The notes beneath the pieces are model-generated. The model was not told the DNA's origin and ran no database searches. It worked only from the letters and a program-made list of their open reading frames with translations. 27,189 nt of DNA from a virus, in the UHGV virus genome UHGV-0126599; one strand, given 5' to 3'. Below are positions 600-25,694 of this stretch, one piece after another. Every line of letters begins with the position of its first letter. Position 1 is the stretch's first letter. Both the position numbers and the translations under genes were made by a program.

Positions 600-1148
600 T
601 CAGCTAGCTGGAAACTTTTTATACAGAGTTGAGAGCCCTACTCCATACGTTTTTGATACGCTTTGTCGTGATTCACCGGTTGCCATCCGCTCCCCCATTT
701 CCCGCCATTGCTCATCCGTAAACTTAGGCCTGCGACCACCAACTCGCCCTTTTGCCCTGGCTACGGCCAGCCCTGCTAAGGTACGTTCGCTATTAAGATC
801 AGATTCATATTGTGCTGCGGAAAGGATGTTACGAAAGTTATAGCGGCCGCTGGCTGTTTTGAGATCCACGCCATCGGTAATACTGCGGAAGTTGATACCC
901 TTTTCCTGTAACTGCTGGAACATCAACAGCGCATGCAGAACGTTGCGGCCTATCCTGTCCAGCTTCCAGACCACCAGTTCATCCCCCGGCTGCATAGTGG
1001 CGATCAGCCGTTTTAGAACCGGCCGATTCGATTTCCTCCCGCTGGCATGCTCTTCAAAAATTTTCTCACAACCCGCTGACTTGAGCGCCGTTAGTTGCAA
1101 TTCAGTGTCCTGGTGGTTTGTTGATACTCGGGCATAACCGTAAATCAT
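600..1148 (-). CDS. Serine DNA invertase (Hin/Gin/Pin/Cin family)
   Basis: Translation MIYGYARVSTNHQDTELQ...GRRPKFTDEQWREM has the hallmark resolvase/invertase N-terminus with catalytic Ser and a C-terminal HTH. ATG at 1148 is preceded by AGGAG; the upstream Met at 1256 in the ORF track is less likely. Confidence 0.9.
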   Translation of the reverse strand: MIYGYARVSTNHQDTELQLTALKSAGCEKIFEEHASGRKSNRPVLKRLIATMQPGDELVVWKLDRIGRNVLHALLMFQQLQEKGINFRSITDGVDLKTASGRYNFRNILSAAQYESDLNSERTLAGLAVARAKGRVGGRRPKFTDEQWREMGERMATGESRQSVSKTYGVGLSTLYKKFPAS

Positions 1149-1152
1149 GGGA

Positions 1153-1179
1153 TTTCTCCTGTTATGAAAACAGGAGAAA
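1153..1179. promoter_or_regulatory. Perfect 11-bp inverted repeat (TTTCTCCTGTT-ATGAA-AACAGGAGAAA) overlapping the invertase RBS
   Basis: Seen directly: 1153-1163 is the reverse complement of 1169-1179. On the invertase mRNA the AGGAG Shine-Dalgarno sits inside the stem. Confidence 0.4.
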
Positions 1180-1200
1180 CGGCGAAGCATCACCAGATTT

Positions 1201-1578
1201 TTGATGGTTATAAAAAAGGTTGGTTTGGGAGAAGCGGCGAAAAGGGATGTGGGCACAGGAGATAATCAGATACCTGATATGTCTTACTGGTCTTCACCGG
1301 CAGGCGGAATTAATTTCCCGAATGGGTTCCAGATGCGATTCGGGACTATCGCTGGTACTGGTGGAAAATTATTTTCTACGCCATTTACAAATCAGTGCTA
1401 TGGCATTGTTTTCGGACAAACATATGGAGCCAACTACTGGATGTTCAGCCCGATGTACAGAGCATCTGATCTGAGTAATACCGGTTTTGCATTCATTAAC
1501 AAAGCCTGGTCTGGCGTTCCGGGGGTAGGTTCTCAGGACGCTGGTGAATCAGTTTTTTATATTGCAGTAGGGTATTAA
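1201..1578 (+). CDS. Alternative tail-fibre C-terminal segment (S'v-like), silent in this orientation
   Basis: ORF runs through the left crossover site; after the shared GLGE residues it encodes a distinct C-terminus (...SYWSSPAGGINFPNGFQMRFG...). It has no promoter or upstream constant part in the current orientation; the fusion to the constant part would be in frame after inversion. Confidence 0.7.
   Translation: MMVIKKVGLGEAAKRDVGTGDNQIPDMSYWSSPAGGINFPNGFQMRFGTIAGTGGKLFSTPFTNQCYGIVFGQTYGANYWMFSPMYRASDLSNTGFAFINKAWSGVPGVGSQDAGESVFYIAVGY
1208..1233. repeat. Left hix/gix-like crossover site of the invertible segment
   Basis: TTATAAAAAAGGTTGGTTTGGGAGAA; its reverse complement shares the first 14 nt (TTCTCCCAAACCAA) with the site at 3005-3030. 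Confidence 0.7.
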
Positions 1579-1579
1579 T

Positions 1580-2023
1580 ATGGAAATGGTTTATAGCGCC
1601 TCAAATAATAGTTTTTTCGCTAAAAATGATGTGGCGAAATATGAACAGGCCGGATGGGAACTTGCTGATATTGTCGAAGTGACATATGACACTTACCTGG
1701 AATTTATTGAAGACAGAACGTTGCAAGGGAAAGTACGCATCGCGGGTGATGATGGCCTTCCCACCTGGGGGGAAATTCCACCGCCAACTCATGAGGAACA
1801 AATTGCCGCAGCCGAACTGGAAAAGCAGCAATTGATTAATCAGGTCAACGAATACATATACAGTAAGCAATGGCCTGGTAAAGCAGCGATTGGTCGCCTG
1901 AAAGGTGAGGAACTGGCGCAATATAATTTGTGGCTGGATTATCTGGACGCACTGGAACTGGTTGATACCTCCAGTGCTCCAGATATTGAATGGCCTACGC
2001 CTCCGGCAGTTCAGGCCAGATGA
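1580..2023 (+). CDS. Tail fibre assembly protein, alternative copy (U'-like)
   Basis: 147 aa; C-terminal motif LDYLDALELVDTSSAPDIEWPTPP typical of Tfa chaperones; ATG immediately after the S'v stop. Confidence 0.85.
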   Translation: MEMVYSASNNSFFAKNDVAKYEQAGWELADIVEVTYDTYLEFIEDRTLQGKVRIAGDDGLPTWGEIPPPTHEEQIAAAELEKQQLINQVNEYIYSKQWPGKAAIGRLKGEELAQYNLWLDYLDALELVDTSSAPDIEWPTPPAVQAR

Positions 2024-2606
2024 CATCCGGCGCGGTGCTCGTATCTGTTGCCGTCACCGCGTCAATGTAATCAAGCACGGCGTTAAGCCGGGTGGTTTCT
2101 GCCTGCGTCAGCTTCCGCCCGGCCTGTAATTTCAGCTGAATCAGACTGATCGAAGCCATTGCAGCATCAATCAGTGACTGGCGCTGTGCTTCTGCCGCTT
2201 CTACTGCGGCGCTATGCTGTGCCTCAGTATCTGTCACCCATTTCTCACCATCCCATTCATCGTATGGAGTTAACGGGGCGATAGTGGTTGTATTTTCAGG
2301 ATATTCGCCAATTTCGGTGATGGTGATTTCATCGCCGTTTTCAGTGTTGTAAACAGTTTCGCCACGATGGTCAGCAACGTATTCCCAACTGGTTAAATCA
2401 GCCTTGCGGCAGATTGCGAAACCTTCTTTTTTGCTGCCCGGCGCATCAACGCAGGAATTAGCTGGAACGCCAGCGCCAACCGGCAGATATTCAACGGATG
2501 AACCAATATATTCACGCGTTTCGCCATTGTAGTTGTAAACGGTAATAAATCCAGCCTCAGTGGCAAAACCGTTTTCATCCAAAGTGATTTTTTTTGTGGT
2601 CATCAT
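1995..2606 (-). CDS. Tail fibre assembly protein, currently expressed copy (U-like)
   Basis: 203 aa; C-terminal motif LDYIDAVTATDTSTAPDVIWPELP; start ATGATGA overlaps the fibre stop; 3' end overlaps the convergent U' gene by 29 bp. Confidence 0.85.
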   Translation of the reverse strand: MMTTKKITLDENGFATEAGFITVYNYNGETREYIGSSVEYLPVGAGVPANSCVDAPGSKKEGFAICRKADLTSWEYVADHRGETVYNTENGDEITITEIGEYPENTTTIAPLTPYDEWDGEKWVTDTEAQHSAAVEAAEAQRQSLIDAAMASISLIQLKLQAGRKLTQAETTRLNAVLDYIDAVTATDTSTAPDVIWPELPEA

Positions 2607-3286
2607 GCTGCCCTTACAATGTAGTTAAATGCAATGTTGCGCGGCCTTGTTTCAGTCCCACCCGTCGCATTAGTTTCCCTACTGGAGGTGCCTCCGGTTT
2701 TTAATACATCATCTGCGCTGGTAGCTGATGTTGCCCCGCTAACTCGGATAGCTAATAAATGCGTATGAGATTGGATTGCTCCTCCCTGCGCAGATAGCAA
2801 TGCACGGCCACTATCTATCCCTCGACCATCATCCCAGCCACGAATAAATTCACCGCGTAAATCAGGCACTTTATTTGTCGGATAAGCCTTTGCCAGTTTC
2901 GGGTATTCTTCAGCAGAAAAAGGCGCACCGTTGCATTTCAGCCAGCCTGTAGGCGGAGTGGCCAAAGGCCACGGGACAGGCACACCAACGGGTAATGCTG
3001 AGCCTTCTCCCAAACCAAGGTTTGTGGTAATCGCTGTCGCCAGCTTTGCCACCAGTCCATCAACGTCACCATCATCGAGCGCGTCCAGTTCGGCGTTCGC
3101 GATAAACTGCCCCAGTACAGCCGCCATCGTCGACGGTTGGCGCAGCGCTTTACTGACCTGTGCGCTGGATGCTTTACCCGAGGAGAATCCTTTCTTCAGT
3201 GCGGTTAGCGTCTCCCATTCCTCCTGCGAGGTAACATTTGCATTAGCATCTGTCGCAAACGCTTTAAAATCATTAGTTCCAGCCAT
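2603..3286 (-). CDS. Tail fibre protein (short constant N-terminus plus invertible variable C-terminus)
   Basis: C-terminus ...HTHLLAIRVSGATSATSADDVLKTGG...RPRNIAFNYIVRAA is typical of Mu S / T-even gp37-type fibre tips. ATG at 3286 overlaps the upstream stop (TAATG); the ORF-track start at 3304 is less likely. Confidence 0.8.
   Translation of the reverse strand: MAGTNDFKAFATDANANVTSQEEWETLTALKKGFSSGKASSAQVSKALRQPSTMAAVLGQFIANAELDALDDGDVDGLVAKLATAITTNLGLGEGSALPVGVPVPWPLATPPTGWLKCNGAPFSAEEYPKLAKAYPTNKVPDLRGEFIRGWDDGRGIDSGRALLSAQGGAIQSHTHLLAIRVSGATSATSADDVLKTGGTSSRETNATGGTETRPRNIAFNYIVRAA
3005..3030. repeat. Right hix/gix-like crossover site inside the tail-fibre gene
   Basis: TTCTCCCAAACCAAGGTTTGTGGTAA: two imperfect 12-bp half-sites around a central AA, resembling hix/gix sites as I remember them; encodes LGLGE in the fibre. 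Confidence 0.7.
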
Positions 3287-3966
3287 TAAAGTAATCTCCC
3301 CCATGCGCCGTCATCAAAACCGGCGATGTATTCGTTATCCATGTCAAATCCAAAGAATTTTGTTCCTTCGGACGGTGTTTCGACCGAGGGTGTTTCAACG
3401 CCGCCAGCCCATACACCAGCAGCTTTAACGGTGAGATAACCCTGTTTGATAGCGGCTATCAGTTCGAGTGACACATCAGAAATATCAGTCTCGGGAAAAA
3501 CCCAGACCGATATCGTCATGTCCTGGTTATCGACGATCTGCATCTTCAGTCCAGAGCCTGCGGTAGCAGCGTCAAGGATGGGAGGCAGAGAGTCGTTCCG
3601 ACCATCCCAGTTGTTGATAGCGATTTTCGCTTTCAGAATGATGCGGTACGTCTCATCACTCAGCGTCGTATAGCCAGAATCAGGATCATATGGCCCTTGC
3701 CAGATGCCCTGGTCATATCCGAGCCCGTCAGTGTCCCAGCTGAAATAAACGCCGCTAATTGGCTGGCTGACTATACGACTACGCCCAATCCACAGGCCGA
3801 GGATATCGAGTTGCACGCCAACCGCCGTATCGATATCGAAGGCTGTTACAAGCCCTGACATAGTGCTGGACACATCAATCAGCGGGCGGGTGCTCAGATC
3901 TATATGGTCAAAAAAGAGTGGCTTGGTAGCGTGGTAGTTAGTGATCAGTTCGGTGTATTTGCTCAT
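3286..3966 (-). CDS. Baseplate wedge/tail protein (Mu gp48-like position)
   Basis: 226 aa ORF between the baseplate J gene and the fibre; ATG at 3966 overlaps the J stop (ATGA). Assignment by synteny. Confidence 0.6.
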   Translation of the reverse strand: MSKYTELITNYHATKPLFFDHIDLSTRPLIDVSSTMSGLVTAFDIDTAVGVQLDILGLWIGRSRIVSQPISGVYFSWDTDGLGYDQGIWQGPYDPDSGYTTLSDETYRIILKAKIAINNWDGRNDSLPPILDAATAGSGLKMQIVDNQDMTISVWVFPETDISDVSLELIAAIKQGYLTVKAAGVWAGGVETPSVETPSEGTKFFGFDMDNEYIAGFDDGAWGRLL

Positions 3967-6261: not shown

Positions 6262-6290
6262 CCCCATAAAAAAACCCGCTCGGTGGCGGG
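6262..6290 (-). terminator. Intrinsic terminator directly after the inserted two-gene cassette
   Basis: Minus strand reads TAA-ACCCGCCACCGAGCGGGTTTTTTT: a GC-rich 6-bp stem with a 6-nt loop and a 7-T run starting right after the stop codon. Confidence 0.6.
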
Positions 6291-6728
6291 TTATAATTTT
6301 GCTTCTGGATAACATCTACAGCGACCATCAGGACAACACTTTCCCTCCCCGGGATGACCACTTTTAGGAGGCTTACTCCACGAAAATGTTTTCCCATTAT
6401 TTTTAGCGCATTCTGCACACTCGTCACCATCCTCGCAGGAGCGCCAAATATAACGTTTAATACCCAAGCGAGATTGCCTTATCCTCTCTGCCTCGGAGTG
6501 ACGACGGCTGTTTTCGGCGAGGTGTTCAGCATGGCGCGCGTTATCCTTCTCAATTTCTTCTTTACTTCGCCGCTTCCCATTTGCTGGCTTTGATTTTTGG
6601 TAAGCAACCCGTTTATTTCGATTGTATGATTTAATAATTGCGTCTTCATTTCTGCGCTTTTTAAATTTTAAATATTTAACAAATGCAAAAGCAATTACGA
6701 ATAAAATAATAATATATGCAGGTTCCAT
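6291..6728 (-). CDS. Membrane-anchored Cys-rich protein with an F-like C-terminal motif (accessory/moron gene)
   Basis: N-terminal hydrophobic helix (PAYIIILFVIAFAFVKYL) followed by a basic tract, then YIWRSCEDGDECAECAKNNGKTFSWSKPPKSGHPGEGKCCPDGRCRCYPE. AT-rich DNA; start TAATG-coupled to the upstream gene. Confidence 0.65.
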   Translation of the reverse strand: MEPAYIIILFVIAFAFVKYLKFKKRRNEDAIIKSYNRNKRVAYQKSKPANGKRRSKEEIEKDNARHAEHLAENSRRHSEAERIRQSRLGIKRYIWRSCEDGDECAECAKNNGKTFSWSKPPKSGHPGEGKCCPDGRCRCYPEAKL

Positions 6729-7096
6729 TATTTAACCTTTACGCAATCATAAGTTGCATATTGTCTTGGTGCACCCATGCTGGCTTGCAGCCACTGAGCA
6801 TTGAGGATAGCTTTTCCGTTTCGCTTTATGTACTCAAGACCAACCCATCGCCCCGGTTGGTTTGTAGCCATACGCCAATCCATTTTTATATTGTCGTAGT
6901 CTTCTTTTTGTTTCAGAAATGTCAATTTCTGATACTCGGGCTTTGCTCCATTTATGCGAGGAAAGCCGTCATTAGTACCACTCGTTGAGAAAGTGAAATC
7001 ACCGCACTTCATATAGACTTTTCCTGCTGCATTTGCACCAGCAACAGCTGTTAAGCAAATTAAGCCAGAAAATATTCCTGAGATTATCCTTTTCAT
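6728..7096 (-). CDS. Secreted/periplasmic protein of unknown function (accessory/moron gene)
   Basis: Signal peptide MKRIISGIFSGLICLTAVAGANA with a likely AxA cleavage site; two Cys in the mature part; AT-rich; start TAATG-coupled to the hub gene stop. Confidence 0.65.
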   Translation of the reverse strand: MKRIISGIFSGLICLTAVAGANAAGKVYMKCGDFTFSTSGTNDGFPRINGAKPEYQKLTFLKQKEDYDNIKMDWRMATNQPGRWVGLEYIKRNGKAILNAQWLQASMGAPRQYATYDCVKVK

Positions 7097-8160
7097 TAGG
7101 CACCCGTTTTCATCAAAGTCGAATCATTAATCAGGGTAGAAGCTCCACGCGCAAAGCACATCAAATCCATGTACCACGCCTGACCTCTGGTGTCGCCAGT
7201 ATAGTCGATAGCTTTGACGATATAAACGCCATCTGTCGCAATGCTGGCAGCCTGTGACGTCGTGCCGGTCAGCACACGGTTGCCGTTCTCTTCTGTTTCG
7301 GTGATACGCCCGGGCGACTGTGCGATTTCGCTATTGCCGAGCGCGGCGCGGTACACCGAAGCCTGATCGAGCTGGATAAGACCATTAATACGGATGTTTG
7401 GGTTTATCAGGCACCGCACGTTTACTCCGCCGCCCATCGTTTGTTGCGGCATACCGATCAGGCCAGTATCGGCATTCAACACAATGGCTTCGTGAATATA
7501 TTTATCCTCCGGCACCATCTGGACCTGACCATCCACCAGCTGCCATGTCGCTTTGCACTGCGCAGCAATATTATCCATCACGTTACGGGTGGATGAATAA
7601 ATCGCACGGCCACGAGGAAACACGGTATCAGGAAAGTCACCGGTAATGCCCTGCGTCACGCCGAACGCGTTGAAATCCTGCATAGTCGCCCGGTGCAGGT
7701 CCGCAACGGTATAACCAGCGGCAAGCGTGGTGATGGTAGTCGCGTAGAGGAACGCTTCGTGGTTACTGATGGCCTGAATCAGCACCCAGGAATCGGTGAT
7801 GTTGTCCTTCCCGGTGACGGTGAAGCGAATATCACCGTCAAATATCAGGCCGTAGTTCTGACCGTTCACCTGCCCTACCTGGTCTGGTGAAATCTCCCGG
7901 GCGACACCAACCTGGCTCGCATCAACATCCGGCGCAATACCGTCATACCCGGCAATGATGCGAATTTTTGCAAACTCCTGCCCCAGTATCTTGTTCGTGG
8001 TATCGGTCGAAAGGTTGTAAATTTTCACGTTCGCCACTCGCGGCCAGCGTGTATCTGCCCACTCGATCTGGAACGTGACCTTAAAATCAGACAGGGAAAC
8101 GCCCTGCCCGTTCTGGTCCAACAGTTGCAGCTCAAAATGGCGCATCCAGTTAAGAGACAT
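7096..8160 (-). CDS. Baseplate hub protein (P2 gpD / Mu gp44-like)
   Basis: 354 aa; size and position between tape measure and spike match the hub family. Confidence 0.65.
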   Translation of the reverse strand: MSLNWMRHFELQLLDQNGQGVSLSDFKVTFQIEWADTRWPRVANVKIYNLSTDTTNKILGQEFAKIRIIAGYDGIAPDVDASQVGVAREISPDQVGQVNGQNYGLIFDGDIRFTVTGKDNITDSWVLIQAISNHEAFLYATTITTLAAGYTVADLHRATMQDFNAFGVTQGITGDFPDTVFPRGRAIYSSTRNVMDNIAAQCKATWQLVDGQVQMVPEDKYIHEAIVLNADTGLIGMPQQTMGGGVNVRCLINPNIRINGLIQLDQASVYRAALGNSEIAQSPGRITETEENGNRVLTGTTSQAASIATDGVYIVKAIDYTGDTRGQAWYMDLMCFARGASTLINDSTLMKTGA

Positions 8161-8468: not shown

Positions 8469-9091
8469 TGGATACCTATAGAGTTACCAAGACTGGTTCC
8501 TTTTAGTCCATCAAACCACCCTGTTGACTTAATTACCGATTCATTTACTGGGGTGGTGGATTTAGTCCCGGAATTCTGCACCGCAGATGTACTAACCCCG
8601 TCCTGCATATCGGATTTATCAGCAACGGTGACATTTTTTGTATGCGTTATGATGACTTCACGCAGGGTAAGCGTGCAGTTCAGCACGTTCTCGCTGGTTT
8701 TATCGGTCGTCACCTCAATGGCTCGCACCAGCATATTGGTGTACACCCTCTTCCCGGTAACCACATCGAACGGTACGCGCTCAAGCTGCATATCCAGCAG
8801 CTTTTGGTATGTCTCCTTTGGGCTAAGCCCAGCGCTAAGACCGATTGAAGATGTATCAATGAAGTCCAGCAACGAACCGCCACCAGCGAAGCCGCATTCC
8901 ATTGTGACTTCGCTGGGGCGCTTATACGCATGATCGGCGATGAAGCCCGAAGCGCTATTCGTTGTTGGCTTCTCCACCGGGTGCTCAGTAATTTCGAGCG
9001 CATCAGAATGCTTTTCGGAGACGACCACGCTGGGAATTAATATGCCAATTCGCCGGGATTGCTGGCGAAAAATAGCGGAGAGAATATCCAT
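8465..9091 (-). CDS. Tail/baseplate protein downstream of the tape measure
   Basis: 208 aa ORF, TAATG-coupled to the tape-measure stop; assigned by synteny only. Confidence 0.5.
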   Translation of the reverse strand: MDILSAIFRQQSRRIGILIPSVVVSEKHSDALEITEHPVEKPTTNSASGFIADHAYKRPSEVTMECGFAGGGSLLDFIDTSSIGLSAGLSPKETYQKLLDMQLERVPFDVVTGKRVYTNMLVRAIEVTTDKTSENVLNCTLTLREVIITHTKNVTVADKSDMQDGVSTSAVQNSGTKSTTPVNESVIKSTGWFDGLKGTSLGNSIGIQ

Positions 9092-11094
9092 TAGCTCGGC
9101 ACCGTTCGAAGTTGTTGAGTTAGTTGTGAATTAACGTTCTTCTGCCGCTCAACTGTGATATTGGCAGCCTCACGTGGATCAGATACACCGTGAATATTAA
9201 TAACCGTTTCTTGCTGTATGTTTTGTGAAGCACCGCCACCAGCGGCCATACGAACCAATTCACTTGGGTAAGGGTTTCTCCCGTTCTCATGATGGATAAT
9301 TCCATTCATCAGAGAGGACATTACCTGCGGATCTTTAAGGTTGAGAATGGCATCAGGAGCCACACCCATCATTTTCGATAACTGAGCAATGTAAGCACCG
9401 GTATTATTTTCATTCCCCGGTGCCCACGTAGAGATTATATCGTTAAGGGTTTGCAGCGGCTTGCCTGTCGTCTTACCTTCAAAGTAGCGCATTAATTGTC
9501 GGGAAAGCGCTTTCAGGCCATCATAGGCAGTTTCAAACCGGGCGAACCTGCCGCCAGGCCTTTCGAGCGTCGCCCCAGATTGCCCACGAAAGTCGATATT
9601 ACCGGGGTTATTATTTCTAATACCTCGTGGAGCTTTAGCAGACTGGGCATGTTGGTCAGGCTCATCATCACCAAACCACCCGCGAATGGTTCTGCCTACG
9701 CTGCGCGGGTCAAATCCCAGATTCTCCTTAACCCAGTCAGCGCTTCTGTTGGCGCTATCCTCTACTGCCGGTGTGGCACTCGGTTGCCCGCTGCCCTGAT
9801 TTAGCAGCTGTTTGCCTATACTAGCGGCCTGCGCCCAGTTGCCATCTTTTATGGCATTCAGCAAATCAGCGATCATGTTCAGCATCTTGCCGAACTCACC
9901 CATTTGCGAAATGAAGTTGCTAAAATCCCACTTTAGGGACCATGACTTGGGGTCAATACCGAGCAACTTAGCCAGCGCTTTTGTCAGGTCCGTAACAGTC
10001 TTTTTCAGGTCACCAATCATTTTGACGGCCTGATCAATTTCAGTCTTCCATTTCCCCCAGTCAATCAGGCTTTTGCCACCTTCTTTCCACGTCTGGTAAT
10101 CATCCAAGAGCAGACCAAGTGCAATAATAAGCGTCGTTATCATGCCCAAGGGTGATGACATGAAAGCGGTATTTAGCAGCCGCCATGCAACCAACAGCCC
10201 ACTGAACAATGCGATAAGCTGCTGCGTGGCTGGGTTCAGCTTTTTGAACCAGGCGATCACACCCTCAACAGCTTGCCCAGTTCGCCATAACACGCGGGTA
10301 ATCGCGTCACCTGCCCAGAGAATTCCTTTGGTGATCTTCGTGATGACCGCTTCAATCTTCGGCCAGTTGTCGAGTATCTGCCTGCGGAAGTTATCAATAC
10401 TGCCAGCAAGGCCACCAGCTAGGTTAGAGCCAATCTTGTCTTTCGCCTGTCCAAGCGTCATCGTCAGATTACGCATGGAGGTCATGAAAATATTGGACTG
10501 TTTAGCCGCTGACTCAGCATTAAAACCAATACGCTTTGCCGTCAACGCGTACTCAGAACTGAGCTGCCCCATCCCTCTGCGCATCGCCATCAGCGTGTTT
10601 TCATCGATGCCAAGCATCTGCGCGTATTGTTTCGCGCGGTAATACGGCATGTTGTTGAGCTTTTGCCCAACGCCAGTAAAGATGGCCGCAGTATCACGCA
10701 TCTTTCCGCTGGCATCGCGGGTCTGGACACCAAGACGGTTCAGGAACCCTTCCGCCCCCGGATTGCTACGCATGAAGCCAGCCAACCCTTCGAGGGAGGA
10801 CATGGCCGACTCAGCGCTGGCGCCAGTTTGCGATGCGGCATAGCCCAGCGCTTTGATGCCCTGGACGCTGGCCCCCGTCCGCTGGGATGCCCAGTAAATT
10901 TTATCCAGACCATTCGCGATCTGGGTGGTAAATCCGACAATGCTCAGCGCTGCTCCTTCCACCACCGCGCCGACCTTCAGAACGTTCGCGGTAACGCCTT
11001 TCAGCACTGCTTCAAACTTATTAGCGCCAGCCTGATCGATATCGAATCCCAGCGAAACAAGGAAATCTTTAATCGTATCTGCGTTACCGCTCAT
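9091..11094 (-). CDS. Tail tape measure protein
   Basis: 667 aa with long helical segments and a membrane-like hydrophobic stretch (ALFSGLLVAWRLL...LIIALGLLL); sits after the chaperone pair. Confidence 0.85.
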   Translation of the reverse strand: MSGNADTIKDFLVSLGFDIDQAGANKFEAVLKGVTANVLKVGAVVEGAALSIVGFTTQIANGLDKIYWASQRTGASVQGIKALGYAASQTGASAESAMSSLEGLAGFMRSNPGAEGFLNRLGVQTRDASGKMRDTAAIFTGVGQKLNNMPYYRAKQYAQMLGIDENTLMAMRRGMGQLSSEYALTAKRIGFNAESAAKQSNIFMTSMRNLTMTLGQAKDKIGSNLAGGLAGSIDNFRRQILDNWPKIEAVITKITKGILWAGDAITRVLWRTGQAVEGVIAWFKKLNPATQQLIALFSGLLVAWRLLNTAFMSSPLGMITTLIIALGLLLDDYQTWKEGGKSLIDWGKWKTEIDQAVKMIGDLKKTVTDLTKALAKLLGIDPKSWSLKWDFSNFISQMGEFGKMLNMIADLLNAIKDGNWAQAASIGKQLLNQGSGQPSATPAVEDSANRSADWVKENLGFDPRSVGRTIRGWFGDDEPDQHAQSAKAPRGIRNNNPGNIDFRGQSGATLERPGGRFARFETAYDGLKALSRQLMRYFEGKTTGKPLQTLNDIISTWAPGNENNTGAYIAQLSKMMGVAPDAILNLKDPQVMSSLMNGIIHHENGRNPYPSELVRMAAGGGASQNIQQETVINIHGVSDPREAANITVERQKNVNSQLTQQLRTVPS

Positions 11095-18292: not shown

Positions 18293-19066
18293 TCAGGCGA
18301 GATAAGAATGAGGGTTGGGGAAGACGATTTCTTTGTAACAGCGGCAGTTCGGGAGCTCGCCAGCGTGACCGGTCATGCCGTCAAGCGTTGGAGGTCGGCC
18401 CCATTCGACAAACTTCCCTTCCATCTCTCGATGAGAATGCCGGACGTCGCCATCTTCGGCTGTACGCCAGATATAACCATTCGAGCCGATTGACAGCGCA
18501 CGCGCCTGATCCAGTGCACCGGTTGCGCGCCCAAGCTCAGTCCGGGCGATAAGGTTCGCTCGTGAGCGTGACACGTCACCGGAAGCAGCTATCTCTTTCG
18601 CGAATGGCTCAGCGCGGCCACCAGTTACTACAGCCTCGATGGCCTTGTTCTGAATGTCATACACCCGATCGGCGGCCTCAAGAGGCAGAGATTTGATGTA
18701 CTTAATTTGCTCGGCGACGATGGATTTCATCACCTGGCCTACCGGGGCGCGGTCGACCATGTTGCGTAGTTCTGCGCTGATGTTCCGACTGTGCTGACGC
18801 CACTGCTTTTCATTCTGGCGCGCAATGTCGGCGGTGAAGCTCTCAGCAACCTTAGTCGCCCAGGGGGTGATGATTTCGCTGTAGCGCTCCAGCGCATCCA
18901 TTATTTCGGTGACGCTATCGTTTGAACCATCGTAGCGACCATTTACGATATCCCCGACCGCCCGCGCTATCTGCCGTAGGCTCGTTCGATATCGGATCTC
19001 CGCCTGGCGGCTCTGGCGGTTTGTCGCCAAGTTCGCCGATGCCTGGCGGCGCTTCGTCTTCGGCAT
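18293..19066 (-). CDS. Head morphogenesis protein (Mu F / SPP1 gp7 family)
   Basis: C-terminal motif YIWRTAEDGDVRHSHREMEGKFVEWGRPPTLDGMTGHAGELPNCRCY is diagnostic of the family; the start overlaps the portal 3' end by about 150 nt, so the true start may be internal. Confidence 0.75.
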   Translation of the reverse strand: MPKTKRRQASANLATNRQSRQAEIRYRTSLRQIARAVGDIVNGRYDGSNDSVTEIMDALERYSEIITPWATKVAESFTADIARQNEKQWRQHSRNISAELRNMVDRAPVGQVMKSIVAEQIKYIKSLPLEAADRVYDIQNKAIEAVVTGGRAEPFAKEIAASGDVSRSRANLIARTELGRATGALDQARALSIGSNGYIWRTAEDGDVRHSHREMEGKFVEWGRPPTLDGMTGHAGELPNCRCYKEIVFPNPHSYLA

Positions 19067-20384
19067 TCTCGATATCCTCGTCGGTAATGGATGCCCCGAT
19101 GCCGGTGACGTCAGAGTTTTCGCGCAGGTCGGTCATCGCCGCCTTACGCGTCATCAATCCGTCGCCCAGCGCGGTACTGATCGCGTTGGTGGTGTTTACG
19201 GCCACCGTTGATCGGTCAACGTCTGACATTTGCCATAGCGGGTTAAACTCAAACGTGAAATCGTCCGGCAGCGGCTTTCCGAGTTCCGAGCGGTGCATAA
19301 TGTCCAGTATCCGGCGCATCGGCAGCCGTAAGCGGCGCTCCTGCAATGAGCTCACCCGGTCGTAATAGTTGGCGAGGTCTGCATCACCAGTAGAGAAGCC
19401 TTTCGGGGATTGACCGAACAGGCGTACCAGCGGGATACCAACGGCACCGCTGATCTGCTCAGCAAACTGCGAAAGAATGTCATCCAGACCACTAAAGCTG
19501 TACTGGTGGGTTTCGAACTTATCCCGCGAGTCCATGAGCGTCATACCTTCATTGCTCTGGAACTGGCGGATCAGGTCGATGTTCTTCAGCAACGCTTCGA
19601 ACGCCGGGCCTCCAAGCGCGATAAGCTCGCGCAACTTCTCCACGCTATAGGTACGCAGATGCGCTTTATATACCAGCTGCGCCGCGCCGACAGTAGCGCT
19701 ATCGAACGCAGTAAGCCGATCCCAGATACGCTCTACAACCGACATTCCCCATTCGTTTTCGGTCATCTTCTGCTGGAATGGCAGCGTGACGCCATCAAAG
19801 CGGATCAGGCGGCTGTGATGGATGCGCCAGGCCGGAATGCCCGTTGCGGTGGTCACCACGTCGTAAAACTCAGGCTTGCCGAGGTCCGGCCCCATCTCTT
19901 TAATGCGGCGTGTCAGCACCGGGTTAATCATCCAGCGGTCGAGCGGGAGAATGCCCTTAAACTTGCCCTCGCCAATGGTTTCGAGTCGCAGCGGGGTCAT
20001 TGGTGCTTGCCCCTCGATCATGATGAAGCCGACCGCGCCGCCGTAGAGGCGCGACCATTTCAGCACGTCGTTCAGCGCATCCCAGATCTGCAACTCATCC
20101 AGTTGCGCTTCGAGGGTGCCACGGTCTTTGGCGTCAATCTCCGAGGTGATGCGAATGCCTTTGCGGGTCATATCGTCCGGGATAGCGTCGACCGCTTCGC
20201 CGATAACCCACGAACCGCGATATGACCATTCCACCAGCATGCGGTTTCGGCTGGTGAAGTTCGCCCGGTAGGTCGATGCTGAATGCTGGTTAGGCGTCTG
20301 CATCCCCACGCGGGCGACAAAGTTCTCATAGCCATCAGCGGTGGCCTGCGCCGTTCGCTGAGAGGCTTGCTTGTTTCGTGCCAT
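18915..20384 (-). CDS. Portal protein
   Basis: About 490 aa directly after the large terminase; ATG at 20384 (MARNKQ...) has a GGGAGG RBS and overlaps the TerL stop (ATGA); the ORF-track start at 20411 is TTG. Confidence 0.8.
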   Translation of the reverse strand: MARNKQASQRTAQATADGYENFVARVGMQTPNQHSASTYRANFTSRNRMLVEWSYRGSWVIGEAVDAIPDDMTRKGIRITSEIDAKDRGTLEAQLDELQIWDALNDVLKWSRLYGGAVGFIMIEGQAPMTPLRLETIGEGKFKGILPLDRWMINPVLTRRIKEMGPDLGKPEFYDVVTTATGIPAWRIHHSRLIRFDGVTLPFQQKMTENEWGMSVVERIWDRLTAFDSATVGAAQLVYKAHLRTYSVEKLRELIALGGPAFEALLKNIDLIRQFQSNEGMTLMDSRDKFETHQYSFSGLDDILSQFAEQISGAVGIPLVRLFGQSPKGFSTGDADLANYYDRVSSLQERRLRLPMRRILDIMHRSELGKPLPDDFTFEFNPLWQMSDVDRSTVAVNTTNAISTALGDGLMTRKAAMTDLRENSDVTGIGASITDEDIENAEDEAPPGIGELGDKPPEPPGGDPISNEPTADSAGGRGYRKWSLRWFKR

Positions 20385-21787
20385 CAGGCTTGCCTCCCGA
20401 GCAATTCCCAAATATCCATTGTTGTATCGGTCGGCGCGAACGCCATTATGAAAGCGTCGGCAATGTTAGGTGAGGGGATATCGCGCTTAGCCAAATCTTT
20501 CTTGCTTTCAACCATAACCCTACCGTTACGATCAAAGTCTCGGTGCGGGGTCGTCAGCTCAAGCTTTAGTTTCTCCAGGTGCGGGCACGATGAATCGATA
20601 CTTATCAACTCATCAACAGGATATTCCTCTCCATTTTTCACCGCGTTGAACGTATTACGAAAGCGATCAGCTACCAGCCACCATGCCTGGGCTTTCAGAT
20701 TGGCAAAGAAGTCTTTATTCGGAATGCCGTTATATTCAGAATCTGGCTCGTTCACACCAGCGCCAGCATTGAAGCGTTGATAATTAACTGGTCGTGAATA
20801 AGGATTTTCACGTCGTCTGTCTTCGTTAATTTCCGAGAATTTAGCACCAGCAGAAGCGCCAACACCAATGGAGTCATAAACGATATCAGCACTTCTCTCT
20901 GTGGCTGCCTGATATGCCCGCTGGCAGCTTTTAAGAAGCTCGTCTTCTTTTGCCTTCCATTCATCAGCCCAATACACAACGGAGCCATGACGATAAACAT
21001 TGGAGCACTTATCCGCACCGCTATCGGCAACGTCGAAGCCTATTCGCTTTCGTCCGTTTGGCTCAAAACCAAGCACCTTATGGGCATCTATTGCAGCCTC
21101 AATCCACGAAAGTTTAATAATTGCCGCGTCATCATCAGATTCGGGAACCCCCATATAAACGTGGTCAAACCCCTCCGGATCACGACGCTTTGCAGCCGAG
21201 ATAACCTTAAGCATGGTGTCTGAGAGGAATGGGTTTTCGTCGTAATTGATTTTTCGCACCAACGTATCTTCTGGTGGATCAACAACGAAATTACGCCATA
21301 CAAAGTCAGTCACCAGACCAGGGTTAAAAATAAACCAGCATTCAGATCCGCTTTTACGAATGGTTGGTTCCAGTATCTTCCACTGGTATTCCGTTAGTGC
21401 ATGGGCTTCTTCAAGCCACAAAACGCTGATACCTTCCAGGGATTTAATTTCTTCGATATTGCGCCATAAACCGTAAAACACGAATTCTGAGCCAGTGACC
21501 CGGTTGATAATTTTATTATTCAGAATTCGGAAGCGATGCCGCAGCCCAAACCGTTCAATCTGTATTTTGAGCAGGGTATATACCGACTCTTCAATTTTGT
21601 TCTGGATCTGACGTGCACAACAAAAGCGCAGGTTGTATTTATTTGCCAGAAAGACAGCAAACCCAGCAGCATCCCATGACTTTGACGATGAGCGCCCACC
21701 AAAAAGTACTTTATTTCGAGCCTGTGTCGTCCAGAAGTTCCTTAGAGCCGGATTCAGGGTCGGTTTGGATGTCAGAGTAGAAGTCAT
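20384..21787 (-). CDS. Terminase large subunit
   Basis: Walker A-like GGRSSSKSWD near the N-terminus and a nuclease-type C-terminal half. Start is ambiguous among several in-frame Met/GTG codons between 21787 and 21829. Confidence 0.8.
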   Translation of the reverse strand: MTSTLTSKPTLNPALRNFWTTQARNKVLFGGRSSSKSWDAAGFAVFLANKYNLRFCCARQIQNKIEESVYTLLKIQIERFGLRHRFRILNNKIINRVTGSEFVFYGLWRNIEEIKSLEGISVLWLEEAHALTEYQWKILEPTIRKSGSECWFIFNPGLVTDFVWRNFVVDPPEDTLVRKINYDENPFLSDTMLKVISAAKRRDPEGFDHVYMGVPESDDDAAIIKLSWIEAAIDAHKVLGFEPNGRKRIGFDVADSGADKCSNVYRHGSVVYWADEWKAKEDELLKSCQRAYQAATERSADIVYDSIGVGASAGAKFSEINEDRRRENPYSRPVNYQRFNAGAGVNEPDSEYNGIPNKDFFANLKAQAWWLVADRFRNTFNAVKNGEEYPVDELISIDSSCPHLEKLKLELTTPHRDFDRNGRVMVESKKDLAKRDIPSPNIADAFIMAFAPTDTTMDIWELLGRQA

Positions 21788-22493
21788 TAAGGTCACGATC
21801 TCCATTACCGTCATCAACGCCAGCATCACGACGAAGGCGATCCGCTTCCAGAGACACTTTGTCAGTGGAGGCGAGCCGATGCTCTATAGATGCCTTTGTG
21901 AATTCCAGCGACTCAATGCGCTGCGTGTTGCGGTGCATGGCCTTTTCAGCAGAGGAAATCAGCGAGTGCAGATCCTTCGCTTTATCATCATCGGCAAGCT
22001 CCAGTTCAGCCTGCCAGCGCCCAATGTTCTCCGCCGCCGTCAGGTTCGCCGCGCGCAGCCAGAACAACTCATCGTCGAGCGTGAGCAGCTTCGCATCTTC
22101 GGTGATTGCATCAGAGAGCAGCATCCTGCGACCGTAGCCGCCGTGCTTAAGGGCATTCTGGTTGCCAGGCTGGAAAGGAGGGTGGTTGGTGACTACGTTC
22201 CTGCGCACACGTTCGGGTTTCGTATCTGGAGGATTCGCAGCATTGGAGGATTCGCAATCACCATCAGATGGCTTGCTACCTCTGGCCTTATCGCCTTTTT
22301 TTGCCTGCGAATTCGCAGTTTTATTCGCACTTTTCTTTTGCGAATTCGCACTACCATTCGCAATTTTGATATAGCGCTTTGCAGTCGAGTAATTCAGTCC
22401 CTGCGCTTCGCACCATTCTTTGGGGGAAATGCCGGTTTTGGCATGTTCGGACAGGAACCGTTGCTGAAGCTCGCCCCAGTCCGGCTTTGCCAT
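21711..22493 (-). CDS. Terminase small subunit (HTH-containing)
   Basis: N-terminus MAKPDWGELQQRFLSEHAKTGISPKEWCEAQGLNYSTAKRYI is a DNA-binding HTH; GGAG RBS; sits immediately upstream of TerL. Confidence 0.6.
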   Translation of the reverse strand: MAKPDWGELQQRFLSEHAKTGISPKEWCEAQGLNYSTAKRYIKIANGSANSQKKSANKTANSQAKKGDKARGSKPSDGDCESSNAANPPDTKPERVRRNVVTNHPPFQPGNQNALKHGGYGRRMLLSDAITEDAKLLTLDDELFWLRAANLTAAENIGRWQAELELADDDKAKDLHSLISSAEKAMHRNTQRIESLEFTKASIEHRLASTDKVSLEADRLRRDAGVDDGNGDRDLNDFYSDIQTDPESGSKELLDDTGSK

Positions 22494-24539: not shown

Positions 24540-24794
24540 AATAGAGGGTAGTGCGTTGAGCTTTTGCTCTTATGGTCCTGGTAGGTATTTGGTGTGTGGT
24601 GACCGGTGCTGTGTTTTCCGGCATGTAAATGAACTACCCGTCGTCGCCATGGTGAGCCTTTACCTCACCATCTAGCTGATAAGTTAGCGCATCAGCCTGC
24701 GCATTCACCACAACGATAATTGCACTGCGCCTGTTTCGGTTAGCGTAACGGGATTAACCGGTCACCCCAATGCAATTATCTGTTGTGCAGATAC

Positions 24795-24824
24795 AAAAAA
24801 AGCCCCGAGCTATTAACTCAGGGC
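24795..24824 (-). terminator. Intrinsic terminator downstream of the late promoter (tR'-like)
   Basis: Minus strand GCCCTGAG-TTAATAG-CTCGGGGC followed by TTTTTTT, about 100 nt after the Q stop codon. Confidence 0.7.
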
Positions 24825-24858
24825 CATCGAATGAATGCACTACTCCATCATTGATTTC

Positions 24859-24887
24859 AGATTAAACAAAAATCGCCACTTTGTAAA
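24859..24887 (-). promoter_or_regulatory. Candidate Q-dependent late promoter (PR'-like)
   Basis: Minus strand TTTACA - 17 nt - TAATCT between the Q stop and the first terminator; hexamers are imperfect and the call is positional. Confidence 0.3.
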
Positions 24888-24929
24888 GTGTAGTTTTCTA
24901 GATAAATCCTATTTCATAGAAAACATTCA

Positions 24930-25694
24930 CTATCGCGTGACTTTGTTCAACATCTGGTTTGCGTACTCTTCCTGCTTGATGCACTCACCTACCAGACTTT
25001 CGAAAAAATCCTTGTAAGACCTGCGCCACGTGGTTTCAGGTATATCTATCACCGTTACGCAGATGTATTTACGGACGCTATCAGGTAGCAATCTGGCATA
25101 ACCACGCCCATTGCAGCGCGTACAGGTTTTATATGCAGGAACGCCGCGCTGTAGAATAGTTTTCTCTTTGTCTAATACTGTTCCTTTGCCATTGCACTGG
25201 CATGCGTTGGTCAGAGCACCCTTCCCTTTGCATTTGTGGCAAAGCACCTTAACCATCTCTCTTTTTTCGCTAAGGTGTGGCTGTCCGATATGCTTCATCG
25301 TCATTACTTCAGCTTCGACAAACTTATTTCCATTGCAGCAGTCGCACGTTCTGGTACTGGCGGCGCTCCGGGAGTAATCAGCAAAGGCGAAAGTTGCGAG
25401 AACTTGCATTACCTTTGGCTTAACATCGCTCTCAAGCTTGCGTAAGGCGGCAACCTTATCGCAGTGCTCAATTGCATATTTGGTCAGCAGGTCAATTGCT
25501 CGCTCGCGATCGTAATCGCTGATATCCATCTTACCGAGGAATGCACTGAACCCGAGATCAGCCCGGCTCTGTGTCATTCCGATCGCCGCCATAATGTCAG
25601 TGCCGGTTAATGAGTCAGATGCGGTTGCACGTGGAGCGTCGCTAATCATCGTTGACTTCGCGAAGTGGTATTTCACTGTGTTTTCGAGATTCAT
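24930..25694 (-). CDS. Late-gene antitermination protein Q
   Basis: 254 aa with Cys clusters (CDCCNGNKF..., CHKCKGKGALTNACQCNGKG, CTRCNGRG) typical of zinc-binding Q antiterminators; located just upstream of the lysis cassette; AGGAG RBS. Confidence 0.8.
   Translation of the reverse strand: MNLENTVKYHFAKSTMISDAPRATASDSLTGTDIMAAIGMTQSRADLGFSAFLGKMDISDYDRERAIDLLTKYAIEHCDKVAALRKLESDVKPKVMQVLATFAFADYSRSAASTRTCDCCNGNKFVEAEVMTMKHIGQPHLSEKREMVKVLCHKCKGKGALTNACQCNGKGTVLDKEKTILQRGVPAYKTCTRCNGRGYARLLPDSVRKYICVTVIDIPETTWRRSYKDFFESLVGECIKQEEYANQMLNKVTR

Follow-up and report, generated by a model that had tools for sequence, protein, structure and literature searches.

The subject of this work is the interval between the baseplate hub and baseplate spike genes in UHGV virus genome UHGV-0126599, at positions 6,262 to 7,096 of a stretch of 27,189 nucleotides (nt), which as a whole is called the window. 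The interval is filled by two small open reading frames (ORFs), ORF-A and ORF-B, and a terminator hairpin, all on the same strand as the hub and spike genes. Comparison of the window with about 100 related loci makes it very probable that the interval is a layered accessory locus in the late operon, a hotspot of the moron type composed of a fixed ORF-A, a swappable slot that holds ORF-B in this phage, and a terminator. The features of the locus are listed below, with protein lengths in amino acids (aa).

7096..8160, minus strand: baseplate hub gene, 354 aa, the upstream border (phrog_196 baseplate hub, E 4e-83; PF22759 E217_GP41, E 7e-6)
6728..7096, minus strand: ORF-A, 122 aa, predicted to be secreted to the periplasm (phrog_3443, E 2e-41)
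7028..7096, minus strand: predicted Sec signal peptide of ORF-A, residues 1-23, with cleavage after ANA (reading of the sequence and conserved AXA motifs)
6291..6728, minus strand: ORF-B, 145 aa, cargo of the variable slot (homology breakpoints versus relatives)
6663..6719, minus strand: predicted N-terminal transmembrane anchor of ORF-B, residues 4-22 (hydropathy; helix in the model)
6303..6518, minus strand: C-terminal domain of ORF-B resembling MuF/SPP1 gp7, residues 71-142 (PF04233, phrog_324, alignment with the phage's own MuF)
6268..6292, minus strand: intrinsic terminator with a GC-rich stem of 7 base pairs, a 6-nt loop and T7, beginning within the ORF-B stop codon
5516..6256, minus strand: baseplate spike gene, gpV-like, 246 aa, the downstream border (PF18352 N-terminal domain, E 9e-42; PF18946 Apex; TIGR01644 phage_P2_V)

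The hub stop codon overlaps the ORF-A start in a TAATG motif at 7098-7094, and the ORF-A stop overlaps the ORF-B start in the same way at 6730-6726. The spacing between the terminator and the spike gene is 12 nt, and the ribosome-binding site of the latter is GGGG at 6265-6262. The GC content amounts to 0.415 in ORF-A (0.37 at third codon positions, GC3) and 0.411 in ORF-B (GC3 0.32), in comparison to 0.536 in the hub and 0.580 in the spike gene. An earlier note, made from the letters of this DNA alone, had described two small AT-rich genes, both coupled by TAATG to the late operon, and had suggested computing the GC content in windows. The genes, their coupling and their composition (0.41 against flanks of 0.54-0.58) were all confirmed, and the 806-nt block of ORF-A and ORF-B proved to have the third lowest GC content among the 2639 windows of the same size across the whole stretch. 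Low GC as a mark of recent insertion was considered and rejected, since orthologues in distant phages, only 31-54 % identical, are equally AT-rich. Two more dips in GC content were seen in the window, at 20400-21800 (0.42-0.47), in the 5' part of the large-terminase region, and at 24600-25200 (0.43), just downstream of the Q gene.

To map the breakpoints, the window was compared with 11 annotated relatives taken from E. coli genomes and GenBank phages. Homology to relatives with other cargo breaks at 6280-6298 on the spike side and resumes at 6729-6744 on the hub side in these 11 loci. Relatives carrying other cargo at the identical place have hub and spike flanks that are 96-99 % identical to those of the window. 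As the hub-side homology resumes at the ORF-A stop codon, the variable unit is ORF-B alone, and on the evidence of these alignments ORF-B is truly accessory. Across about 90 loci the slot ranges from 62 nt, when it is empty and holds the hairpin only (L075), to 1714 nt, and at least 26 unrelated types of cargo were found in it, most of them with a signal peptide, a lipobox or a membrane segment. The following cargoes were recorded.

DUF4236 gene, opposite strand, 15 loci
two different signal-peptide proteins, 9 and 8 loci
Phd/Doc, 9 loci
EACC1-like gene, opposite strand, 8 loci (PF19953 at cut-off)
ORF-B, 6 close copies and distant singletons
membrane protein with a 70-aa partner
Cys-rich 181-aa protein
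258-aa protein with a possibly HEPN-like partner (weak profile match)
Arc-like protein with a P22-type antirepressor
YafO toxin pair, in L099, a more distant E. coli prophage

A PADLOC search with ten slot cargoes gave only weak matches, to HEPN and SngB, none of them better than E ~0.003. The EACC1-like gene encodes 116-121 aa with a central hydrophobic stretch, lies on the opposite strand and matches PF19953 exactly at the gathering score; it occupies the slot in L004, L005, L012 and L019 as well as in Hafnia phage yong1 (L100, 5495-5860). In a Klebsiella pneumoniae prophage (L102, 2950-3776) two consecutive terminator hairpins stand behind a B-like gene and are followed, after a leader of about 150 nt, by a KilA-N gene and a third hairpin before the spike gene, which looks like stacked moron units in one slot.

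The cargo of the slot and the allele of ORF-A reassort. In L004 and L019 the ORF-A allele of the window (98-99 % identity) stands before a different cargo, one type of cargo can be found behind different ORF-A alleles, and ORF-A is present without ORF-B in 77 of 88 loci. ORF-A itself is far more constant. A scan of IMG/VR with the ORF-A alignment yielded 215 relatives, of which 80 loci were kept; ORF-A lies directly 3' of the hub in all 80 wherever the upstream flank is present, these loci having been recruited via ORF-A itself. Among the ten close E. coli loci retrieved by their flanking DNA instead, it occupies the same position in nine. A homologue also follows the hub in Klebsiella phage Mulock. 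Hafnia phage yong1 has no homologue, and in the E. coli prophage AR_0118 (L008, 1822-2937) a 371-aa lipoprotein replaces ORF-A. A survey of 5426 complete E. coli genomes detected DNA resembling ORF-A in 40 and a close ORF-B copy in only one. The locus as it stands in the window is also present in E. coli 2021CK-01361 (NZ_CP107720.1). By this distribution ORF-A is a backbone gene of the phage lineage, kept by nearly all relatives.

The two-gene accessory cassette proposed in the earlier note was therefore not borne out: ORF-A is found in nearly all relatives, Mulock included, and only ORF-B is accessory. Nor are the two genes an obligate pair, as is evident from L004 and L019 and from the cargoes that travel with different ORF-A alleles. 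An accessory insertion between hub and spike can be upheld for ORF-B, which is exchanged for other cargo or missing (L075), and has to be given up for ORF-A. The possibility, raised in the same note against its own proposal, that related phages universally carry orthologues of both genes at this site holds for ORF-A and not for ORF-B. Finally, hub and spike had been taken to be normally adjacent; in this lineage at least one gene separates them in every one of the approximately 100 relatives, the sole exception being L106, a distant GC-rich metagenomic phage in which the two are adjacent.

The terminator predicted immediately after the second stop codon was found at 6292-6268. Its stem AACCCGC/GCGGGTT with the 6-nt loop spans 6292-6273, T7 lies at 6274-6268 and the folding energy is -11.1 kcal/mol. 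The hairpin alone is not exceptional against shuffled sequences (z = -1.0). Of 88 loci, 86 have a hairpin and T-run 15-21 nt upstream of the spike ATG (15-17 nt in most), in 31 sequence variants with compensatory changes in the stem: AACCCGC/GCGGGTT, AAACCAGC/GCTGGTTT, AAGCCGC/GCGGCTT, AAGCCCAC/GTGGGTTT and AAGGTCGCA/TGCGGCCTT all keep the pairing. This conservation with covariation shows the terminator to be real despite the modest z value. The variant of the hairpin follows the type of cargo, an empty slot keeps its hairpin too, and in the Klebsiella locus L102 each added gene brings its own. The sequence comprising the T-run and the ribosome-binding site, TTTTTTTATGGRGTTTTTATG, is conserved across loci.

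The hairpin is separated from the spike gene by nothing but the T-run and the ribosome-binding site. No promoter fits there, so the downstream baseplate and fibre genes need read-through of the terminator. The Q antiterminator encoded upstream agrees with this requirement. If late transcription passes over the terminator and selection nevertheless keeps it, the terminator must act on transcripts that are not antiterminated. It follows indirectly that ORF-A and the cargo may also be transcribed without Q, in the prophage.

ORF-A has the N-terminus expected of an exported protein, with a basic start, a hydrophobic core and the putative cleavage site ANA|AG, and its orthologues show AFA|D, ALA|D, AIA|D or AHA|D. 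Signal peptide and cysteine conservation were assessed in 68 aligned homologues, in which C31 and C118 are invariant. The AlphaFold2 model is all-beta, with a predicted local distance difference test (pLDDT) score of 85, about 52 over residues 1-20 and above 83 elsewhere. The signal-peptide periplasmic protein of the earlier note thus stands as a prediction, on the strength of the AXA site and the invariant cysteines across orthologues, and ORF-A is predicted to be a small disulfide-bonded beta-barrel exported to the periplasm. The family comprises 105 clusters at 90 % identity, all from Enterobacterales, and a profile search of 1.84 billion proteins returned 60 representatives. In P0116 (292 aa) and P0128 (265 aa) the ORF-A domain forms the C-terminal part of a lipoprotein, behind an unannotated N-terminal domain of about 190 aa, which again points to a periplasmic location. 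No match to ORF-A was found in Pfam, NCBIfam or PADLOC, and a sequence search of PDB gave only insignificant matches (avidin, a designed Kelch repeat). Neither in fold nor in sequence does ORF-A resemble the lysozyme inhibitors MliC/PliC, Ivy, PliI/PliG or T4 Spackle.

The mean pairwise identity of ORF-A is 0.70 (0.58 in its N-terminal part), in comparison to 0.87 for the hub and 0.90 for the sheath initiator. Positive or diversifying selection on the variable N-terminal half was considered and rejected, as the ratio of nonsynonymous to synonymous substitution rates (dN/dS) is 0.13 there and no pair exceeds 1; for ORF-A it lies at 0.07-0.13. The synonymous divergence (dS) between ORF-A alleles is approximately 0.8-0.9, versus 0.25-0.30 for hub and spike. 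The low dN/dS together with a dS threefold that of the flanking genes indicates that the ORF-A alleles are old, have been moved by recombination and are under purifying selection.

In ORF-B the hydrophobic residues 4-22 (mean hydropathy 2.1) are followed by KKRRNED, with a net charge of +4 in the flank, so that by the positive-inside rule the C-terminus is predicted to be cytoplasmic. The cytoplasmic side would suit the Cys-rich, probably metal-binding domain of the protein. The single-pass inner-membrane protein with a cytoplasmic domain described in the earlier note is in this way retained as a prediction; its zinc-finger-like Cys-rich domain, on the other hand, is the C-terminal part of the MuF/gp7 head-morphogenesis domain, as judged from PF04233, phrog_324 and the phage's own MuF. 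The match covers the C-terminal two thirds of the MuF/SPP1-gp7 domain and falls in residues 71-142 of ORF-B. The PF04233 profile aligns over positions 40-109 of 112 with E 6e-5 and 24.3 bits, under the gathering cut-off of 29.6; TIGR01641 gives E 5e-4 and 20.3 bits, under its cut-off of 39.65; and phrog_324 head morphogenesis gives E 7e-11. ORF-B is 36 % identical to the phage's own MuF (E 5e-11) and 35-43 % identical to the MuF proteins of many other phages, and for several members of the ORF-B family a PF04233 match is on record. The model (pLDDT 83) comprises the anchor helix at residues 3-34, another long helix and, at the C-terminus, a small domain to which no solved structure is similar; a PDB sequence search with ORF-B gave no match. 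Nothing relevant to known defence or exclusion families was found for ORF-B in Pfam or NCBIfam.

The MuF domain is present in about a third of tailed phages. Jamet et al. (PMC5576092) place the genes for MuF proteins directly after those for portals, describe binding of SPP1 gp7 to the portal and call the function of the domain unknown. ORF-B reaches no curated score for PF04233 and its gene does not lie next to the portal gene. By homology it is a MuF-derived protein with a new architecture and in a new genomic place, not the MuF head protein. A profile search returned approximately 37 clusters of ORF-B-like proteins of 120-170 aa from E. coli, Klebsiella (where they are common), Enterobacter, Serratia and Salmonella, with C104, C107, C132, C137 and C139 invariant in the family. 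Homologues down to 37 % identity occupy the same place in phages of E. coli, Salmonella, Klebsiella and Serratia, and all enterobacterial contexts examined have the order hub, A-like gene, B-like gene, hairpin and spike, with a further gene inserted at times.

A different arrangement was observed in L106 (JGI metagenome 3300054967, 1906-3030). An anchorless 155-aa MuF-fragment protein is encoded there between Dit and plug, behind a gene for a 195-aa protein with a Cys-rich N-terminus and one membrane segment; a hairpin follows and no member of the ORF-A family is present. Thus the MuF-fragment gene stays in the baseplate module even as its position shifts.

The window covers most of a temperate myophage with its genes all in one direction. 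Their order is Q antiterminator, holin, lysozyme and Rz, terminase, portal (18915..20411), full-length MuF, head and tail genes and tape-measure, followed by Dit, plug, hub, spike, sheath initiator, baseplate J, wedge and fibres. Its closest named relative is Citrobacter phage Omnitron and, farther off, the temperate Klebsiella myophage Mulock. The phage is a lambdoid-regulated temperate myophage and an E. coli prophage. Two of its genes outside the locus bear on the argument.

24930..25694, minus strand: Q-type antitermination protein heading the late operon, on the same strand (PF03589 Antiterm, E 8e-43)
18293..19066, minus strand: the phage's own full-length MuF head-morphogenesis protein, adjoining the portal gene and paralogous to the C-terminal domain of ORF-B (PF04233, E 6e-18)

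The C-terminal 219 residues of the 667-aa tape-measure protein (9091-9750) are homologous to the endolysin of PDB 7q47 (E 9e-20) and to Gp29 of entry 9vvp; by this homology the tail carries its own peptidoglycan hydrolase. At the other end of the window a serine invertase with Resolvase and HTH_7 domains (600..1256, minus strand) adjoins the plus-strand ORFs 1201..1578 and 1580..2023, the second of which encodes a tail-fibre assembly protein. These ORFs face a minus-strand fibre gene (2603..3304) and a minus-strand Tfa gene (1995..2606), and the fibre region is bounded by a 27-nt inverted repeat (1208-1234 / 3004-3030, 81 % complementary). The region 600-3304 looks like an invertible host-range switch of the Mu G-segment or P1 C-segment type. 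A plus-strand ORF beyond the invertase (89-481, YCII domain, E 9e-32) is probably host DNA, and the end of the prophage would then lie near 500-600. No Rfam match was found in the window.

On these grounds the following course of events is proposed for the locus. In lytic growth ORF-A and ORF-B would be translated along with the hub through the TAATG coupling, and the RNA polymerase modified by Q would pass the terminator. In the prophage state ORF-A and the cargo would be transcribed, with the terminator insulating them from the baseplate genes that follow. The periplasmic ORF-A would target the tip of an incoming tail. ORF-B, at the inner face of the membrane, would mimic the surface by which MuF binds its partner, the portal in SPP1, and this mimicry would hinder DNA delivery or head assembly of competing phages that bear MuF. 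Taken as a whole, with anatomy, mechanism and function together, this explanation has about an even prospect of being right. It is put forward tentatively that the two proteins guard a lysogen, or an infected cell, at the envelope, by superinfection exclusion or defence. A function in conflicts at the envelope is the most likely one, because envelope-targeted cargo dominates in the slot, because toxin-antitoxin modules, an antirepressor and the EACC1-like gene are found in it, and because the ORF-A alleles are deeply divergent. The most specific version, in which ORF-B stands for an undescribed class of prophage defence by mimicry, a membrane-tethered MuF/gp7 decoy that captures a partner of MuF such as the portal or the DNA end, and ORF-A is a periplasmic exclusion factor common to the lineage, seems rather unlikely as formulated.

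Several observations weigh against this explanation. No promoter was identified for ORF-A or ORF-B in a search for sigma-70-like sites and in an analysis of third-codon-position conservation, the latter made on a noisy ungapped alignment. No intergenic space precedes ORF-A, the single sigma-70-like site (7226..7198) is weak and falls within the hub gene, and the region has 3 promoter-like sites against 5.5 expected by chance. The tight coupling to the hub suggests mainly late lytic expression, and a dominant-negative mimic of MuF could harm the phage's own assembly. ORF-B is not clearly nearer to its cognate MuF than to foreign MuF proteins, a mixed signal from two cognate pairs only. No PADLOC defence family was matched by ORF-A or ORF-B. 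Finally, the distances between ORF-A alleles do not covary with those of candidate partners (Spearman coefficients of 0.01 for the fibre, 0.15 for the spike, 0.19 for the tape-measure C-terminus and 0.26 for the hub), which speaks, not decisively, against a self-specific partner of ORF-A such as would be expected of a receptor blocker or an inhibitor of the phage's own tail lysozyme.

The locus shares with the classical morons (lom and bor of lambda, gp15 of HK97) an extra gene of atypical composition between late genes, an intrinsic terminator and Q-type antitermination, and like them ORF-B is absent or replaced in close relatives. It differs in showing no visible promoter for itself, in the translational coupling of its genes to the hub, and in ORF-A, which is fixed instead of sporadic. 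Of the moron reading in the earlier note, the foreign composition and the terminator are supported, and the Q antiterminator agrees with it. HK97 gp15 is reportedly a superinfection-exclusion gene within the tail operon, encoding a small inner-membrane protein; ORF-B is likewise predicted to be a small inner-membrane protein, but the proteins of the locus have no sequence likeness to gp15, Lom or Bor. The defence and accessory hotspots of P2-like phages and P4-like satellites, as they are presented where PMC10884400 cites Rousset et al. 2022, are similar in having a fixed site between conserved genes and many alternative cargoes, toxin-antitoxin modules among them. The slot described here, in contrast, lies in the baseplate module, its cargo consists mostly of single small envelope proteins, and its bounds are a gene for a secreted protein and a terminator.

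With MuF/SPP1 gp7 (PF04233, TIGR01641) ORF-B shares the motif W-x-(S/T)..D...C/R..C/H...GK..W...P..GHPGE..C.CRC. It departs from these proteins in covering only about 70 of the 112 profile positions, in its N-terminal anchor and in being dispensable in close relatives, and its gene lies in the baseplate module, approximately 12 kb from the portal gene, whereas muf genes directly follow the portal gene (PMC5576092). Tab of Pseudomonas phage JBD26, a small prophage moron in the late operon that blocks virion (tail) assembly of related phages (PMC10884400), offers by analogy a precedent for the mechanism proposed for ORF-B as a possible MuF mimic. ORF-A and ORF-B are predicted to reside where T4 Sp (Spackle, periplasm) and Imm (membrane) do, and the hydrolase domain of the tape-measure protein described above (E 9e-20 to 7q47) would be a possible target for a Spackle-like inhibitor. 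There is, however, no likeness to the T4 proteins in sequence or fold, ORF-A and ORF-B are adjacent and expressed late, and ORF-A does not covary with the tape-measure C-terminus. Spackle is helical and ORF-A all-beta.

The strict order of genes in the enterobacterial relatives, in which a B homologue always stands directly after an A homologue with a gap of 0-4 nt and down to 37 % identity, could also mean that ORF-A and ORF-B form one horizontally acquired module of a periplasmic and a membrane partner working as a unit. Their equal AT-richness would agree with such an origin, as would the parallel with T4 Sp in the periplasm and Imm in the membrane. A unit of this kind is improbable in view of the 77 loci out of 88 with ORF-A and no ORF-B, the fact that in L004 and L019 one and the same A allele accompanies other cargo, the exact coincidence of the homology breakpoint with the ORF-A stop codon and the B-like gene of L106, which has no ORF-A family member beside it. 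Very improbable is the view that both are core genes of the tail module, encoding virion components or baseplate assembly factors. The near universality of ORF-A at the site, its coupling to the hub and the purifying selection on it are what such a gene would show, and a B-like gene is found in the baseplate module even in the distant L106, between Dit and plug. Tails are assembled in the cytoplasm, however, while the cleavable Sec signal and the conserved cysteine pair place ORF-A in the periplasm; ORF-B is swapped or gone in phages whose hub and spike are 96-99 % identical, Hafnia phage yong1 lacks ORF-A, L008 has another gene in its place, and the composition of both genes is persistently atypical.

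Lysogenic conversion that benefits the host and is not directed against phages, through envelope proteins altering surface or periplasmic physiology in the manner of lambda Lom and Bor, would account for the prevalence of signal peptides, lipoboxes and membrane segments among the cargoes, for the restriction of the ORF-A family to Enterobacterales, many of them clinical isolates, and for the lack of matches to defence families. Conflict is indicated instead by other occupants of the slot (toxin-antitoxin modules, the antirepressor, the EACC1-like gene), the ORF-B domain is derived from phages and has no obvious host role, and deep, reshuffled alleles such as those of ORF-A are more typical of specificity loci; this alternative is given little probability. 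The hairpin with its T-run could, moreover, serve to control dosage: as an attenuator, or as a 3' end that stabilises RNA, it would regulate how strongly the spike gene and the baseplate genes beyond it are expressed in lytic growth, besides being a conserved anchor for homologous recombination. The spacing from hairpin to spike start is constant (15-17 nt in most loci), TTTTTTTATGGRGTTTTTATG is conserved, the hairpin is present even when the slot is empty, and the homology breakpoints fall in or beside it. Against this role, low-copy tail genes (tape measure, Dit, plug and hub) lie upstream, so that a split in dosage would not be obviously useful, Q-type antitermination normally overrides such terminators, and the separate hairpins of the inserted genes in L102 are as expected of moron units. 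A regulatory hairpin is on balance unlikely, and the layered accessory locus of moron type is the preferred reading of the interval.

Nothing relevant was found in the literature on this locus or on its position as a hotspot in the baseplate module. Morons and cargo hotspots in temperate phages are already well known; the hotspot position, the ORF-A family and the anchored MuF fragment appear to be undescribed in the literature searched. The slot is bounded by the ORF-A stop codon and the terminator and lies within the baseplate operon of widespread enterobacterial temperate myophages. Since its cargoes are mostly unannotated envelope proteins and toxin-antitoxin pairs, it offers a convenient site in which to look for new exclusion or defence genes. 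Two uncharacterised families are defined by this work, a narrow family of secreted proteins predicted to be beta-barrels and a MuF fragment with a predicted membrane anchor, and a phenotype of ORF-B could also shed light on what MuF binds. The picture of morons and hotspots in temperate phages is in this way extended to a new position, and current ideas are not overturned.

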